Of a stretch of DNA of 37,588 nt, positions 27,999-33,274 are shown piece by piece. Position numbers and translations under genes: made by a program. Origin of the DNA: a virus (lineage: Duplodnaviria > Heunggongvirae > Uroviricota > Caudoviricetes); the IMG/VR virus record IMGVR_UViG_2563366827_000004, positions 1 to 37,588 of that record. One strand, given 5' to 3'. The notes under the pieces were generated by a model. That model worked only from the letters and a program-made list of their open reading frames with translations. It had not been told where the DNA came from and made no database searches. The stretch's first letter is position 1. Every line of letters begins with the position of its first letter.

Positions 27999-28715
27999 AT
28001 GGAAAATAAAAAATCACTGACGACAGAACAGCTGGAAGACGCTAAGCGGCTTAAGGCTTTGTATGAGTCAAAAAAGAAAGAATTGGGAATAACCCAATAC
28101 TCAATCGCTGATGAACTGGGTATCACCCAAGGAGCGGTAGGGCATTATCTTAATGGCAGAAATGCGCTAAACGTTGAGGTTGCATCTGGTTTTGCACGAT
28201 TGTTGCAAGTCTCAATTGCTGATTTTAGCCAGTCAATTGCTGCCAAGGTTGCAGAACAGGCAGAAAGCCTTAAGAGCGATGCCAACGTAAGGTATGCAGG
28301 GGAATACAGAGCAGGAAAGAGGTATCCGGTGTTAAGCAGTATCCAGGCTGGCTCGTGGTGTGAAGCATGCGAACCATACACCATTAAAGACATAGATGTT
28401 TGGCTTGAGTCTGACGCGCATATTCAAGGTAATGCGTTCTGGCTTAAAGTGGAAGGTGATTCAATGACGGCACCGGTTGGGTTAAGCATTCCAGAGGGAA
28501 CATTCGTTCTTTTCGATACCGGAAGGGAGGCGATCAACGGCAGCTTGGTCATAGCAAAACTTTCTGACTCTAACGAAGCAACATTCAAGAAGCTGATAAT
28601 CGACGGCGGAAATAAATACCTCAAGGGACTTAATCCTGCATGGCCTCTCGTGCCAATCAATGGAAACTGCAAGATTATAGGCGTTGCAATTGAGACAAAA
28701 CTCAGACTGGTTTGA
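27999..28715 (+). CDS. cI: CI repressor (lambda-CI-like, LexA-type autocleaving C-terminal domain)
   Basis: 238 aa; aligns with recalled lambda CI along its length (TQEQLEDA.RLKA.YE.KK.ELG...FWL.VEG.SMTAP...FTFKKLI.D) but the HTH recognition-helix region differs. Confidence 0.9.
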   Translation: MENKKSLTTEQLEDAKRLKALYESKKKELGITQYSIADELGITQGAVGHYLNGRNALNVEVASGFARLLQVSIADFSQSIAAKVAEQAESLKSDANVRYAGEYRAGKRYPVLSSIQAGSWCEACEPYTIKDIDVWLESDAHIQGNAFWLKVEGDSMTAPVGLSIPEGTFVLFDTGREAINGSLVIAKLSDSNEATFKKLIIDGGNKYLKGLNPAWPLVPINGNCKIIGVAIETKLRLV

Positions 28716-29469: not shown

Positions 29470-29769
29470 ATGACAGTAGTCATTACATATCTGGCTGACG
29501 ATAACGCCAGAAATCGCCGCAGAGCACGCAGACAGGCTCAACGTGAACAGGCGATGCAAGAACAGCGACTGGCGCGAAAAATTGCGCTAAAGCTCTCTGG
29601 TTGCGTCAGAGCGGATAAAGCAGCATCACTCGGAATCCTTCGCTGCAAGAAGGCAGATGAAGTCGAGAGTAAACAGAATCGTATTTACTACCGCAAGCCA
29701 CGCAGTGAAATGGGTGTGACTTGTGTTGGTCGCCAGAAAATGAAATTAGGCAGCAAACCACTTATTTGA
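29470..29769 (+). CDS. N: N-like antitermination protein
   Basis: 99 aa, first gene after pL/nutL, GGAGG RBS, N-terminal arginine-rich motif DNARNRRRARRQAQREQ. Confidence 0.7.
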   Translation: MTVVITYLADDNARNRRRARRQAQREQAMQEQRLARKIALKLSGCVRADKAASLGILRCKKADEVESKQNRIYYRKPRSEMGVTCVGRQKMKLGSKPLI

Positions 29770-29780
29770 GAGGAATTAAT

Positions 29781-30404
29781 ATGTCATCAATCCGCTTAAC
29801 TACGAGAATGAAAGAGGAAATCGCTCGTAACGCTTTAATTAAGTCTGGGGTTTTCACTGAACTTGAAGAAGTAACAAAGTTAAAGAACCAGCTTGCACTT
29901 GACGCCAGAGTTATTGCGTTTGGCGGTAAAAAGAAAACTGAGGAAGTGGATCGGTTATCATCCAAGTTAGCAGCTATAAGTGAAGAACTTGAGAAGATGG
30001 GATGTTCATTTTACTCATGCGATGTTCGTTCTGCTTCGATTTATCTGACTGTATCTGGAAGAAGGGTTGGCTGGCATTCATACGGAAAAGACGGCAACGG
30101 TGAAGATATATTGCTCCCCACCCCAGAAAAAGATAAATGCATGTTTGACGCAGAACACGAAATAACAAAAAGGTTTGATGAAATCTGCGCATTGCAACAA
30201 AAACTTGAAGCCAAGAAAAAGGATATCGAATCAAATGTATGGGCTGCTTTGAACTCAGTCACAACAGTTAAGCGACTTATTGAAGTTTGGCCTGAAAGCA
30301 AAGAATTGCTACCAAAAGAAGCAGATAAAGCAAGTACAGCACTTCCTGCTTTACGGGTAGAAGATTTGAATAAGATGATTGGACTTCCTTCCGAGGCCGC
30401 ATAG
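29781..30404 (+). CDS. Hypothetical 207-aa protein co-transcribed with N
   Basis: ATG at 29781 with GAGAGGAA RBS, 12 bp after the N stop; soluble, no recognised motif. Confidence 0.7.
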   Translation: MSSIRLTTRMKEEIARNALIKSGVFTELEEVTKLKNQLALDARVIAFGGKKKTEEVDRLSSKLAAISEELEKMGCSFYSCDVRSASIYLTVSGRRVGWHSYGKDGNGEDILLPTPEKDKCMFDAEHEITKRFDEICALQQKLEAKKKDIESNVWAALNSVTTVKRLIEVWPESKELLPKEADKASTALPALRVEDLNKMIGLPSEAA

Positions 30405-30419
30405 TCGGCCTTTATTTTT
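30394..30419 (+). terminator. Intrinsic terminator overlapping the stop of the 207-aa gene
   Basis: AGGCCG-CATAGT-CGGCCT followed by TTATTTTT. Confidence 0.6.
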
Positions 30420-30448
30420 GGCATAAACAACAGAATAAACACTGCACT

Positions 30449-30476
30449 GTGTATTCATTCCAACGAGTGAATACAC
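30449..30476. promoter_or_regulatory. 12-bp inverted repeat (gtgtattcattc-caac-gagtgaatacac, 11/12 match)
   Basis: Seen directly between two terminators; no T-run follows. Confidence 0.3.
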
Positions 30477-30538
30477 GGAGCAATGTCGCTCGTAACTAAA
30501 CAGGAGCCGACTTGTTCTGATTATTGGAAATCTTCTTT

Positions 30539-30564
30539 GCCCTCCTATGTGAGGGCAATTTTTT
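30539..30564 (+). terminator. Second intrinsic terminator, immediately before the coiled-coil gene
   Basis: GCCCTC-CTATGT-GAGGGC followed by AATTTTTT, 12 bp before the GGAGG RBS. Confidence 0.55.
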
Positions 30565-30576
30565 GACGGAGGATAT

Positions 30577-31545
30577 ATGAGTGAAGTAACAGATTTAGTT
30601 GTTATTGAAAAAGCAAATGCAATGACTGTATTTCAGTCTGCCGACCAGATTGAAGAAATCCTTCAAAAGGTTGAACGTGAAGTTATGTCCTTTGTGCCTG
30701 ATATCACAACGGCAAAGGGCAGAAAGGAGATCGCTTCTCTGGCGTATAAAGTTGCGCAAACGAAAACATATCTCGATGGTCTTGGAAAAGACCTTGTTGC
30801 TGAACTGAAGGAAATTCCAAAGCTAATTGATGCCAACCGCAAGACAGTGCGTGATCGCCTTGATGAGCTGAAAGCCAAGGCACGCCAGCCTCTTACTGAT
30901 TATGAGGAGGAGCAGGCGCGGATTAAAGCCGAAGAAGAGGCTAAGGCAGCAGCTGAAGCTCTCGCAAAGCAAATTGAGTCTGACCATGAAATAGCGATTT
31001 TGATGGATCGCGAATTTGACCGCCAAAGAGAAGAGGCAAGACTCAAAGCGGAGCAGGAAAAGCGAGAGCATGAAGAACGCTTAAAAAGAGAAGCTGAAGA
31101 GAAAGCCAGAGCAGAAGCCGAAGCAAAGGCAAAAGCCGAAATTGAAGCAGCAGCAAGGCGAGAAGCAGAGGCTAAGGCCGCAGCGGAACGTGCAGAGCGT
31201 GAACGCATTGAAGCCGAGCAACGAGCACAGCGCGAAGCAAAAGAGGCAGCAGAACGGGCTGAAAGAGAAAAGCAGGCGGCAATTGAAGCAGAACGCCGAA
31301 AAGCACAGGAGGAGGCAGAACGAATCCGGCGCGAGGCTGAAGCAAAAGAGCAAGCCAGAATAGCAGAAGAAAAAAGAATCAAGGACGAAGAAGAGCGTAG
31401 AGCAAAGGATAAAGCTCACCGGAAAGAAGTAAATAACAAAATACTTGCTGACCTTATCAAGGTTGGCGCATCAGAAGATGTTGCTAAAAATATCATAACA
31501 GCCATCGTAAAAGGCGAAGTATTCGCAACAAAAATAACCTACTAA
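30577..31545 (+). CDS. Hypothetical protein with a long E/R/K/A-rich helical repeat region
   Basis: 322 aa; about 150 central residues are almost only E, A, R, K, Q; globular-looking N- and C-termini; GGAGG RBS. Confidence 0.7.
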   Translation: MSEVTDLVVIEKANAMTVFQSADQIEEILQKVEREVMSFVPDITTAKGRKEIASLAYKVAQTKTYLDGLGKDLVAELKEIPKLIDANRKTVRDRLDELKAKARQPLTDYEEEQARIKAEEEAKAAAEALAKQIESDHEIAILMDREFDRQREEARLKAEQEKREHEERLKREAEEKARAEAEAKAKAEIEAAARREAEAKAAAERAERERIEAEQRAQREAKEAAERAEREKQAAIEAERRKAQEEAERIRREAEAKEQARIAEEKRIKDEEERRAKDKAHRKEVNNKILADLIKVGASEDVAKNIITAIVKGEVFATKITY

Positions 31546-31569
31546 TAAAACCAACATAAGGAACCACCC

Positions 31570-31701
31570 ATGATTTACGCAATCGCGGGAGGCGCTCGCA
31601 TGGGTGCCTTCCAACTAAATGAATCTTTACTTGAACGAATCACCCGTAAATTACGTGACGGATGGAAAAGAGTTGAGATCTTATTATGCGCAATGAAATA
31701 G
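31570..31701 (+). CDS. Possible small protein (43 aa)
   Basis: ATG 31570 after AAGGAA; below the track cutoff. Confidence 0.3.
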   Translation: MIYAIAGGARMGAFQLNESLLERITRKLRDGWKRVEILLCAMK

Positions 31702-31838
31702 CCATCAATCACCAGATGCTTCGTGCTGCACAGAACAAAGCAGTAATAGCCAGATTTATTGGTGATTCAAAAATGTGGCTTGAAGCAAATAAAGCGATGA
31801 AATCAGCTATCAACCTTCCGTGGTATCGCAGGAAATGA
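31686..31838 (+). CDS. Possible small protein (50 aa)
   Basis: Overlaps the previous ORF; stop overlaps the next start (ATGA). Confidence 0.3.
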   Translation: MRNEIAINHQMLRAAQNKAVIARFIGDSKMWLEANKAMKSAINLPWYRRK

Positions 31839-31993
31839 GTTTTACAGATAACTGGTCAGACGAAGAATTCATTCGTCAGATGAAAGATTTAATCGGTAAC
31901 GAAGGAGATATTCATGTCACTTGCAACCACAGTGAAGGAGAGCAAGTTACAGAGACGCATGTACACGCAGAAAGCTCTCTGGTATCGCCATAA
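31835..31993 (+). CDS. Possible small protein (52 aa)
   Basis: ATGA-coupled to the previous ORF; below the track cutoff. Confidence 0.3.
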   Translation: MSFTDNWSDEEFIRQMKDLIGNEGDIHVTCNHSEGEQVTETHVHAESSLVSP

Positions 31994-32092
31994 TGGTGAC
32001 CGCGAAGGAATGCGGGTATGCCTTAATTTGTCCCGAGTCGAAGTATTAAATCAGCGTTATTTCCTTGGGCCTTGTCCATTCTGAGGTGAATT

Positions 32093-32800
32093 ATGGATTT
32101 GAACAAATTCGATGAGCCATTCAGCCCTGAAGATATCGAATGGCGAATACAGCAAAGCGGTAAAACACGCGATGGCAAGGTGTGGGCTATGGTGCTGGCT
32201 TATATCACGAACCGGGCAATCATGAAACGCCTGGACGATGTTTGCGGCAAAGCAGGATGGCGCAATGAATACCGCGATATTCCCAACAACGGCGGCGTTG
32301 AATGCGGCATATCAATAAAGATTGATTCCGAATGGGTAACCAAATGGGATGCTGCTGAAAACACGCAGGTAGAAGCCGTCAAAGGTGGTCGTTCAGGTGC
32401 AATGAAGCGTGCTGCCGTTCAGTGGGGAATCGGTCGGTATCTGTATAACCTTGAGGAAGGTTTCGCACAAACATCTCTCGATAAAAAGCAGGGGTGGCAC
32501 AGGGCAAAACTGAAGGATGGAACAGGATTTTACTGGCTCCCTCCATCGCTGCCGGGATGGGCAATCCCAGCATCAGATAACAAACCATCACCAGAAAATA
32601 CCAACCAGAAATCTCCATCGGTTGACTGCGAACAAATCCTGAAAGACTTCAGCGATTATGCGTCAACAGAAACTGACAAGAAAAAACTCATCGAGCGTTA
32701 TCAGCGTGACTGGCAATTAATGGCTGGCAACGAGGAGGCGCAGGCTAAATGCGTTCAGGTAATGAACATCAGAGTTAACGAACTAAAACAGGCGGCATAA
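32093..32800 (+). CDS. Single-strand annealing recombinase (Rad52/Erf-type SSAP)
   Basis: 235 aa; motif AMKRAAVQWGIGRYLYNLE is typical of Rad52-like phage annealases; the C-terminal ~50 aa resemble what I recall of the P22 Erf C-terminus (unverified). Confidence 0.7.
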   Translation: MDLNKFDEPFSPEDIEWRIQQSGKTRDGKVWAMVLAYITNRAIMKRLDDVCGKAGWRNEYRDIPNNGGVECGISIKIDSEWVTKWDAAENTQVEAVKGGRSGAMKRAAVQWGIGRYLYNLEEGFAQTSLDKKQGWHRAKLKDGTGFYWLPPSLPGWAIPASDNKPSPENTNQKSPSVDCEQILKDFSDYASTETDKKKLIERYQRDWQLMAGNEEAQAKCVQVMNIRVNELKQAA

Positions 32801-33274
32801 ATGGCAAGCAGAGGCGTAAATAAGGTGATCATTATTGGTCGCCTTGGGCATGATCCAGAAATCAGATATTCACCATCAGGAACGGCATTTGCAAACCTTA
32901 CAGTTGCTACGTCAGAACAATGGCGTGATAAGCAAACTGGAGAGCAAAAGGAGCAGACGGAGTGGCACCGTGTGGTAATGAGCGGGAAACTAGCAGAAAT
33001 TGCCAGCGAGTATCTGCGAAAAGGCTCTGAGGTTTATCTTGAAGGCAAATTGCGGACAAGAAAATGGCAGGATCAAAGCGGACAGGATCGGTTCACTACC
33101 GAAGTTATCGTAGGCGTTGGTGGAACCATGCAAATGCTTGGTGGCAAGCAAGGAGGCAATGAACAGTCTTCACCTCAGCGAAATAACGGTCAGCAACAAA
33201 GACAGCAACCTCTGCAGCAGGGAAATCACAGCGAACCACCTATGAACTTCGACGATTCGGATATTCCGTTCTAG
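32801..33274 (+). CDS. ssb: Single-stranded DNA-binding protein
   Basis: 157 aa; OB-fold-like N-terminus, Gln/Gly-rich linker and acidic tail ending DDSDIPF. Confidence 0.9.

Follow-up and report, generated by a model that had tools for sequence, protein, structure and literature searches.

CIII of phage lambda inhibits FtsH and stabilises CII (PMC1838920), and lambda Kil blocks the assembly of the FtsZ ring and causes filamentation (PMC3961180, PMC11762379). In P22, where the genes are arranged in the order c3-kil-arf-erf, the Arf protein is reported to stimulate Erf-dependent recombination (Poteete 1991, as cited in PMC12315714). A 2026 preprint reported that a clone of HK75 gp33 alone triggers P2 OLD toxicity, and proposed that gp33 manipulates RecBCD (bioRxiv 10.64898/2026.07.10.737580). 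For the two small genes next to the textbook cIII-kil pair, annotations in Sf6, HK97 and HK022 date back two decades.

The DNA analysed here (the window) is the 37,588-nucleotide stretch of the virus record IMGVR_UViG_2563366827_000004, and all features described below lie on its plus strand. As regards gene structure and family identities, it is quite probable that positions 31570–32092 represent, in an early-left (pL) operon of a lambdoid (Sf6/HK75-like) kind, the cIII-kil end that runs into the recombination module. Upstream of the cluster are a repressor of the S24/HTH type, an N-like protein and a pair of terminator-like hairpins; SSB and Abc2 are found downstream of it. The annealase gene at 32093–32800 codes for a single-strand annealing protein of the Rad52/Rad22 family (Pfam PF04098, 92.8 bits; phrog_1097, E 5e-130), and its ribosome-binding site, GAGGTG at 32083–32088, overlaps the stop codon of the preceding gene, ORF56. 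The search of the 30400–32300 region against Rfam at E 1 detected no RNA family.

One N-antiterminated transcript would give rise to four small proteins, CIII, Kil, ORF3 and ORF56. CIII (43 aa) would be translated from its own ribosome-binding site, Kil (50 aa) from a start located 16 nt within the 3′ end of cIII, and ORF3 (52 aa) from a start on the ATGA that ends kil. Translation of ORF56 (56 aa) would begin in another frame, from its own strong GAAGGAG inside ORF3, and would stop 8 nt short of the gene for the Rad52-like annealase. Such a cluster is unremarkable and known from earlier descriptions. Sf6 (GenBank AF547987) has each of the four real genes annotated, as 32, 31, 30 and 29, and the same genes bear the numbers 44, 43, 42.1 and 42 in HK022. 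The new points are limited to the ORF3/ORF56 overlap and to a confound in the published gp33 clone.

The probable early-left operon's cIII-kil end

Conservation was assessed on 52–60 distinct haplotypes of viral contigs, for which a single selection criterion was used, an exact 25-nt anchor in the 3′ end of kil. Since selection was based solely on this anchor, the sample is unbiased for the ORFs located downstream of kil. An earlier sample of loci, picked for 100% identity of the ORF56 protein, was biased and was therefore discarded for the ORF56 tests and replaced by the kil-anchored one.

The cIII gene (31570–31701, 43 codons) matched the Lambda_CIII model of Pfam (PF02061; 56.3 bits, cut-off 25.7, E 3e-15) and phrog_550 (E 5e-20), corresponds to gene 32 of Sf6, and its CDS is labelled 'protease FtsH-inhibitory lysogeny factor CIII' by PGAP. 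The ribosome-binding site that the initial annotation had claimed for the first ORF of the cluster could be read from the sequence as AAGGA at 31558–31562, 7 nt before the ATG. The pN/pS ratio of cIII was 0.05 (p 0.001). The conserved central amphipathic region of lambda CIII is the part needed for activity. The CIII of the window shares the central segment ESLLERITRKLRDGWKR with lambda and HK022 CIII, and this core is also identical in HK620 cIII. As in lambda and HK022, the gene stands directly before kil in the pL operon and overlaps its start. Unlike lambda CIII, the protein is shorter (43 aa, HK022-type), and the HK620-type CIII has a C-terminal tail (...LIDVLNQPGVPKNG) that is replaced here at the onset of the HK022-type kil module. 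By homology to a family whose role is established, this protein would act as an inhibitor of the FtsH protease, leading to stabilisation of CII.

The first 16 nt of the second gene, kil (31686–31838, 50 codons), are shared with the end of cIII. The Kil protein matched the Lambda_Kil model (Pfam PF06301; 72.6 bits, cut-off 27.6) and phrog_2055 (E 1e-35), and had 100% identity with its counterparts in HK022 (X16093), HK97 and Sf6. The gene showed a pN/pS of 0.13 (p 4e-8). The closest lambda-type Kil compared, that of the HK620 type, was ~46% identical, and the basic C-terminus YRRK is comparable with the RSK/RSSK motif reported for homologues of lambda Kil. Dependence on FtsZ and ZipA was shown for lambda Kil. 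The host cell-division inhibitor encoded here would be expected, by homology to a family of established role, to block FtsZ-ring assembly.

The gene immediately upstream of the annealase gene

The initial annotation had described a chain of four translationally coupled micro-ORFs upstream of the annealase gene. Four such ORFs do exist, at 31570–31701 (43 codons), 31686–31838 (50 codons), 31835–31993 (52 codons, counted from the ATG) and 31993–32049 (18 codons). Two of the proposed stop/start junctions were also found as described, ATGA between the second and third ORFs and TAATG between the third and fourth, whereas the first two ORFs are joined by a 16-nt out-of-frame overlap. The 3′ end of the chain was mis-parsed, as the gene directly preceding the annealase gene is a 56-codon ORF in a third frame with a strong ribosome-binding site of its own. 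This ORF, located at 31914–32084, is missing from the initial annotation.

The 18-codon ORF lies wholly inside ORF56. Its frame showed a pN/pS of 1.00 (p 0.56) and carried three nonsense alleles (L11* twice and S16*), its start codon is changed to AGG (M1R) and lost in the common HK022-type allele, and no ribosome-binding site was seen in the sequence before it. Although the ORFs exist, and so do the two junctions ATGA and TAATG, it is extremely improbable that all four micro-ORFs are translated in series with the 18-codon ORF included, since the latter shows the pattern just described and is embedded in a gene whose frame bears the synonymous bias (dN/dS 0.10–0.22). This conservation pattern refutes the four-ORF parse, and the 18-codon ORF is a chance ORF, spurious rather than a gene. 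Synonymous-biased conservation was found in cIII, in kil and in the N-terminal half of ORF3, and was lacking in the 18-codon ORF. The idea of an early-region micro-operon of small regulators or inhibitors fits three of these ORFs, namely CIII, Kil and ORF3, a gp33 homologue.

As judged from its sequence, the real fourth gene is ORF56, a conserved 56-codon gene corresponding to gene 29 of Sf6 and gp42 of HK022 (phrog_1723; E 9.4e-36 over residues 1–56, that is, the full length). It codes for a protein of pI 10, overlaps ORF3 in another frame by 80 nt and leaves 8 nt between its end and the annealase start. Its ribosome-binding site, GAAGGAG at 31901–31907, was read from the sequence 6 nt before the ATG, inside ORF3. 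In the part shared with ORF3 the pN/pS of ORF56 was 0.16 (p 1.5e-4), and past that part it was 0.25 (p 9e-6); the pairwise dN/dS values ranged from 0.10 to 0.22, with synonymous sites near saturation in the comparisons with distant homologues. The protein is 100% identical to Sf6 gene 29, 82% to HK022 gp42 and 36% to HK620 hkaM, and phages of Enterobacter and Erwinia, as well as prophages of Yersinia, Kluyvera and Pseudocitrobacter, carry homologues of 48–82% identity. The gene was found without ORF3 at L019, L020, L005, L222, L228 and HK620 hkaM; hkaM and several prophage homologues stand alone, with no ORF3 overlapping them, and homologues not accompanied by ORF3 (L222, L223 and L228) likewise have an AGGAG-type site upstream. 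RNA folding around the ORF56 start revealed no convincing structure hiding the ribosome-binding site (z = −1.7), and conservation of the small hairpin GACGAA...TTCGTC, located inside ORF3, does not extend to L018 or L006.

The AlphaFold2 model of ORF56 (pLDDT 90) contained helices at residues 7–27 and 30–49, predicting a basic helical hairpin that ends in ...PF. None of 13 family members had a significant match in Pfam, and the sequence profile search of PDB gave no significant match for ORF56 either. The Foldseek searches against PDB and BFVD returned nothing significant (all E ≥ 0.19), the fold being a generic two-helix hairpin. When the ORF56 profile was run against 1.84 billion representative proteins, it gave only 22 matches, mostly of ~42–71 aa, plus five larger repeat-like matches; the small ones were full-length relatives, fragments and frameshift variants. 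The family is narrow, and this search provided no functional anchor. Nothing relevant was found in the literature on hkaM and gp42.1. The 'recombinase' label carried by phrog_2123 (ORF3) and phrog_1723 (ORF56), and for the latter family also in RefSeq, is not supported for proteins of 52 and 56 aa that show no Pfam domain and no similarity to solved structures; it probably originates from the gene neighbourhood.

The predicted shape of ORF56 recalls that of Kil, as both are basic proteins of ~50 aa with a predicted two-helix hairpin and a G-D turn, and the Kil core was reported to be a helix-turn-helix (PMC11762379). ORF56 could on these grounds be a diverged second Kil, a tandem paralogue acting as another helix-turn-helix division inhibitor. 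However, the hhalign probability between the two families was as low as 0.25%, and the paralogy was rejected; moreover, no ORF56 family member matches the Pfam Kil model, and ORF56 is present at loci devoid of any kil (L019 and L020) and tracks the recombinase gene and not kil. We consider this relationship very unlikely.

ORF56 is, on the other hand, always located immediately upstream of a recombinase gene, whatever the type of the recombinase. Near-identical copies precede Erf in 43 loci and a Rad52-like gene in 38, and the diverged homologues precede genes of AAA_24/Sak4-like ATPases, ERF or Rad52. This invariant position before unrelated recombinase types suggests, as the foremost though still rather doubtful candidate role, that ORF56 may be a second accessory protein of the recombination module, which would act on a host target and not on the annealase.

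ORF3, its conservation and its likeness to Arf

ORF3 (31835–31993) encodes an acidic protein of 52 aa (pI 4.4, net charge −9), whose start overlaps the kil stop in ATGA. It matched phrog_2123 (E 1e-41) and is the equivalent of Sf6 gene 30, HK022 42.1 and gp33 of HK75 and HK446; PGAP annotates it in only part of the E. coli genomes. In the AlphaFold2 model a single helix was formed by residues 9–20 and the remainder was of low confidence, and the helix bears the conserved motif W-S-D-E-E-F-I-R. This N-terminal helix is Arf-like, and the acidic tail is predicted to be disordered.

The two halves of the frame differed in constraint. The N-terminal half had a pN/pS of 0.29 (p 0.015), a modest signal in the close sample that is based on 7 synonymous and 10 non-synonymous changes, and the C-terminal half was unconstrained (2.38). 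Across lineages of 64–85% nucleotide identity, the N-terminal half gave values of 0.23–0.47 in its own frame versus 0.7–2.8 in the other frames, and the ORF3 frame had the lowest pN/pS of the three in 9 of the 9 informative lineage pairs. In L006, L224 and L018, where the gene ahead of it is Kil, KilR or a cIII-like one, the ORF was retained and starts with ATG or GTG. A 35-aa variant of the ORF3 N-terminus, which occurs without ORF56, stayed open across many haplotypes. A nonsense codon (S8*) was found in one of the 52 sampled haplotypes.

Some of these data could also be read as the trace of a non-functional ORF, that is, a leader or a mosaic-junction remnant, the 5′ 80 nt of which would be conserved for nucleic-acid reasons such as the ORF56 ribosome-binding site, coupling to kil or a recombination boundary. 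The unconstrained C-terminal half and the natural nonsense allele fit this explanation, as do the many lineages that have ORF56 without ORF3 and the coincidence of ORF3 codons 22–25 with the ORF56 ribosome-binding site. Furthermore, the first 50 nt of ORF3 are 100% identical in otherwise unrelated modules (e.g. SEN22), as would be expected of a recombination linker. Nevertheless, the preference for synonymous changes belongs specifically to the ORF3 frame, within lineages as well as across them, the frame and its ATG or GTG start overlapping the upstream stop have been kept behind three different upstream genes, and the 35-aa variant remains open in frame; in addition, a clone of exactly the ORF3 CDS has a phenotype. 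Considering these results, a remnant is improbable.

The position of ORF3 resembles that of P22 arf, as both lie between kil and the annealase gene and are coupled to both neighbours. Both proteins are small and acidic (47 aa for Arf, 52 aa for ORF3) and possess an N-terminal [FW]-S-D-E-E-F-I helix. The C-terminal parts of the two are unrelated and the similarity is limited to ~19 residues, and unlike arf, ORF3 does not abut the annealase gene and overlaps another gene. The Arf model of Pfam (PF17585) matched neither ORF3 nor six of its relatives, even at E 10. The profile–profile comparison with Arf by hhalign gave a probability of 12% and E 0.0024 over just 19 columns, the match to phrog_2445 (Arf) was weak (E 0.011, residues 5–26), and only W/FSDEEFI was found by BLASTP.

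The likeness to HK75 gp33 is much closer, with 90.4% identity over 52 aa. HK75_33 and HK446_033 also start on the ATGA of kil, and HK75 has the same Rad52-like annealase, SSB and Abc2 downstream. ORF3 departs from gp33 of HK75 and HK446 in its last seven residues and is shorter by 4 aa (AESSLVSP* vs AAGVNVSPEGRS*), which is due to an allelic patch in the overlapping ORF56. Based on the phenotype reported in the one preprint and on the gene position, the most likely role of ORF3, which we propose tentatively and at somewhat less than even confidence, would be that of an Arf-like accessory factor acting on host RecBCD or recombination.

The ORF3/ORF56 overlap and the gp33 clone

Mosaic breakpoints were located at 31684, 31835 and 32085. 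Recombination that placed an Arf-like 5′ segment ahead of an ORF56 gene is the probable origin of the overlap, and the C-terminal half of ORF3 would then be ORF56 sequence read through in another frame, free of constraint.

The annotation of HK97 suggested a different relationship between the two frames. Here gp42.1 is 83 aa long and shares one frame with gp42, and the protein collection contains 82-aa proteins and, altogether, at least seven different ORF3N-ORF56C fusions of 81–82 aa, so that ORF3 and ORF56 might be made as one fusion protein by programmed frameshifting. The common frame in HK97 is, however, caused by two 1-nt insertions, which were found in no other phage record and in 0 of 836 E. 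coli records, and the idea was rejected because these insertions are unique to the HK97 record. The database fusions, in turn, break at differing positions, as random indels or assembly errors would. ORF56 also comes with a strong ribosome-binding site and an ATG of its own, and both are conserved in the absence of ORF3; by eye, no obvious shift-prone site was seen at the ORF3 stop, and this stop differs between the Sf6-type and HK022-type alleles. Production of such a fusion is therefore hardly credible, and the two frames are regarded here as separate overlapping genes.

The overlap affects how the published gp33 experiment can be read. According to the primers given in the preprint, the gp33 clone corresponds exactly to the ORF3-frame CDS, and it also carries the ribosome-binding site, the ATG and the first 30 codons of ORF56. 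Because of this content, the OLD phenotype is not cleanly assignable to ORF3. NCBI PGAP and the HK75 and HK446 records leave ORF56 unannotated. A bolder and improbable proposal is that ORF56, an overlooked overlapping gene that is nevertheless subject to strong purifying selection, codes for a host-directed effector within the recombination module, e.g. a basic hairpin whose invariant C-terminal ...PF mimics the tip of the SSB tail, or a partner of the acidic ORF3, in which case part or all of the OLD-triggering or RecBCD-manipulating activity credited to gp33 would belong to ORF56 or to the pair.

A 66-nt probe spanning the ORF3/ORF56 overlap matched 833 of the 5426 complete E. coli genomes. 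The ORF3/ORF56 module is thus common in E. coli, and standard annotation drops one of the overlapping members, usually the better conserved ORF56. Any follow-up of the OLD-triggering and putative anti-RecBCD activity of gp33 needs the reading frames of ORF3 and ORF56 to be separated.

Composition of the small-gene cluster

The initial annotation described four tiny ORFs of 43, 50, 52, and 18 codons chained by ATGA- and TAATG-type stop/start overlaps, the first having an RBS. All four can be read from the sequence: ORF1 (31570–31701, 43 codons), ORF2 (31686–31838, 50 codons), ORF3 (31835–31993, 52 codons counted from the ATG), and ORF4 (31993–32049, 18 codons), and AAGGA lies 7 nt 5′ of the ORF1 start. 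The proposed chaining was seen at the ORF2/ORF3 (ATGA) and ORF3/ORF4 (TAATG) junctions, but ORF1 and ORF2 share a 16-nt overlap. The observation was real, while the 3′-end of the cluster had been mis-parsed, as a 56-codon ORF in the third frame (ORF56, 31914–32084) was overlooked. Its start is preceded by GAAGGAG at a spacing of 6 nt, it overlaps ORF3 by 80 nt, and 8 nt separate its end from the annealase ATG at 32093.

ORF1 and ORF2 are identified by sequence as cIII and kil: they matched Pfam Lambda_CIII with 56.3 bits (cut-off 25.7) and Lambda_Kil with 72.6 bits (cut-off 27.6), respectively, PGAP names them "protease FtsH-inhibitory lysogeny factor CIII" and "host cell division inhibitory peptide Kil", and Kil has 100% identity to the kil product of HK022 (X16093). 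The functions of CIII and Kil are established at the family level; lambda Kil uses a helix-turn-helix core to block the assembly of FtsZ, an effect that depends on ZipA (PMC3961180, PMC11762379).

These genes belong to the early-left operon of a lambdoid prophage. The cluster is preceded by an S24/HTH repressor (27999–28715), an N-like arginine-rich protein (29470–29769), and two terminator-like hairpins (30393–30412 and 30537–30558), while genes for a Rad52/Rad22-family annealase, SSB, and the anti-RecBCD protein Abc2 follow downstream. Two further pL operon products encoded upstream of cIII, an Nmad5-domain protein (29721–30404; PF18757, 239 bits) and a 322-aa highly charged coiled-coil protein (30577–31545, TolA-like in PGAP naming), have no known role in lambdoid phages. 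A 547-nt stretch is 98.7–99.1% identical to phages IME10, Sf6, and CUS-3, and parts of it were found in 2181 of 5426 complete E. coli genomes. In the Sf6 annotation, this DNA bears genes 32 (cIII-like), 31 (kil-like), 30, and 29, the HK022 counterparts being genes 44, 43, 42.1, and 42. All real genes of the cluster have been annotated before in one or more phage records, which makes it an ordinary finding.

Constraint on the overlapping frames

Because the first set of loci, chosen for an identical ORF56 protein, was biased, 120 viral contigs were picked by their exact match to a 25-nt anchor from the kil 3′-end. The ORF3/ORF56 module was present in 81 of them, representing 52 distinct haplotypes. 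Each segregating allele was counted once, and the counts were set against those of synonymous and non-synonymous sites. The annotated frames of cIII and kil gave pN/pS values of 0.05 (p = 0.001) and 0.13 (p = 4e-8). In the N-terminal half of ORF3 (31840–31913) the ORF3 frame gave 0.29 (p = 0.015) and the other two frames 0.73 and infinity, whereas in the overlap (31914–31990) pN/pS was 0.16 in the ORF56 frame (p = 1.5e-4) and 2.38 in that of ORF3. Farther downstream (31994–32081), the ORF56 frame gave 0.25 (p = 9e-6) and the frame of the 18-codon ORF 1.00 (p = 0.56). Three alleles interrupt the latter frame with a nonsense codon, and the common HK022-type allele has AGG in place of its ATG; therefore, the 18-codon ORF is a chance ORF. 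The synonymous bias by which the initial annotation proposed to judge these ORFs was found for cIII, kil, and the N-terminal half of ORF3 but not for ORF4, and the suggestion that they encode small regulators or inhibitors held for those three only.

In the HK97 record (AF069529), gp42.1 and gp42 are in one frame because single extra bases at locus positions 2780 and 2787 (a spacing of 7 nt, corresponding to approximately 31962–31969 of the window) join the ORF3 frame to the ORF56 frame. These two bases were absent from every other phage record and from all 836 E. coli records; a sequencing error or private mutation is the probable explanation. Several 81–82-aa fusions of the ORF3 N-terminus to the ORF56 C-terminus also occur in the protein collection. 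Programmed frameshifting was considered and rejected, since the fusions break at differing positions, as sporadic indels or assembly errors would give.

ORF3, an Arf-like gene

ORF3 is a real, half-constrained gene. An ORF3-like frame, with an ATG or GTG start on the stop of the upstream gene, is kept in three diverged lineages, in which that gene is KilR-type (L224), cIII-like (L018), or Kil (L006), and the N-terminus MS[FI][TA]D[NT]W[ST][DE][ED][EA]F[IV]R[QL]M[KQ][DE]LI is conserved. Cross-lineage pN/pS was lowest in the ORF3 frame for every informative pair (0.23–0.47 vs. 0.7–2.8 in the other frames). With a pI of 4.4 and a net charge of −9, the protein is strongly acidic, and AlphaFold2 gave a single helix (residues 9–20) with a low-confidence tail. 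Some ORF3 homologues from E. coli and Salmonella prophages (P0036, P0054) carry one or two extra in-frame tandem 21-nt units encoding FIRQMKE, inside the conserved N-terminal helix.

The gene order c3-kil-arf-erf of P22 is the same as here, and [FW]SDEEFI occurs close to the N-terminus of both ORF3 and the accessory recombination protein Arf. Support for homology is weak (BLASTP E 0.013; E 0.011 to the Arf family phrog_2445; hhalign probability 12%). As neither ORF3 nor its relatives matched the Pfam Arf model PF17585, ORF3 can be called Arf-like for its position, size, charge, and N-terminal motif but not a member of that family. Erwinia phage vB_EhrS_59 has a 49-aa gene (L005, 2355–2504) between its cIII-like gene and ORF56 homologue, which contains DFDFIRALYEM; this faintly resembles DEEFIRQM of ORF3/Arf, and the gene could be a third variant of this peptide family.

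One mosaic breakpoint coincides exactly with the ORF3 ATG (31835), and another lies just past the ORF56 stop (32085). In approximately 32 of the 116 usable kil-anchored contigs (four were too short), another module follows the same first 50 nt as in ORF3: a 35-aa acidic ORF (MSFTDNWSDEEFIRQM..DDDSDSE), open across many haplotypes (phage SEN22, L011, 1501–1608, and approximately 32 of loci L102–L221). Beyond these 50 nt, such loci diverge into a recombination module with a 103-aa ORF and a RecE-like exonuclease, and the common 50 nt behave like a mosaic boundary sequence. In the simplest history, an Arf-like 5′ segment would have been placed in front of an ORF56 gene, and the tail of ORF3 would be ORF56 read through in another frame.

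ORF56, an often unannotated conserved gene

ORF56 is a real gene. Compared with homologues at 50–82% nucleotide identity, pS was 0.41–0.94 (near saturation) and pN 0.12–0.41, with dN/dS of 0.10–0.22 where computable. Phages with a homologue include an Enterobacter phage (63% identity), Erwinia phage vB_EhrS_59 (48%), and HK620 (hkaM, 36%); prophage-encoded homologues come from Pseudocitrobacter, Kluyvera, Yersinia, and Symbiopectobacterium. The family is a small one, with 22 matches among 1.84 billion representative proteins searched by profile. Most are of ~42–71 aa (full-length relatives of 56–60 aa, fragments, and frameshift variants), and five are larger and repeat-like. The protein is basic (pI 10) and was modelled by AlphaFold2 as a confident two-helix hairpin (pLDDT 90), with no significant match in Pfam, PDB, or Foldseek searches. 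Descent as a Kil paralogue was rejected (hhalign probability 0.25%).

In every locus examined, a recombinase gene lies directly 3′ of ORF56 regardless of its type (Rad52-like, Erf, AAA_24/Sak4-like ATPase, or HK620 hkaL type); near-identical ORF56 copies precede Erf in 43 loci and a Rad52-like gene in 38, and ORF56 is also present in loci without kil or cIII (L019, L020). Every family member examined ends in ...PF (32067–32084 here), as does the phage SSB 0.7 kb downstream (..DSDIPF; 33257–33274). This shared end resembles the partner-recruiting SSB C-terminal tip, and that of ORF56 could be a mimic of it.

PGAP did not call ORF56 in E. coli genome L003, and among the E. coli matches listed none had a second hypothetical CDS under the match. 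Despite the above dN/dS range, it is also uncalled in the HK75 (L229, 2794–2964) and HK446 (L230) GenBank records. Of the overlapping pair, ORF3 alone is annotated in such records and genomes, and that inconsistently. Proteins of the ORF3 (phrog_2123) and ORF56 (phrog_1723) families bear the product name "recombinase", RefSeq phage records included (e.g., NC_005344); for these small proteins, the label has no support from any domain, fold, or experiment, and it was probably taken from the neighbouring gene.

HK75 and HK446 gp33 were reported to be sufficient to trigger the P2 abortive-infection nuclease OLD, and gp33 was proposed as a new RecBCD inhibitor or manipulator (July 2026 preprint, bioRxiv 10.64898/2026.07.10.737580). 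HK75_33 and HK446_033 are the ORF3-frame gene (90% identity to ORF3), and the primers in the supplement of that preprint amplify exactly their CDS. The fragment takes in the 5′ part of the ORF56 homologue as well, from its RBS through the ATG to codon 30; therefore, the OLD phenotype does not yet tell the ORF3 frame from the ORF56 frame. What is worth keeping is that ORF56 is strongly conserved, overlapping, and often left unannotated, and that it is a confound for the recent gp33/OLD result.
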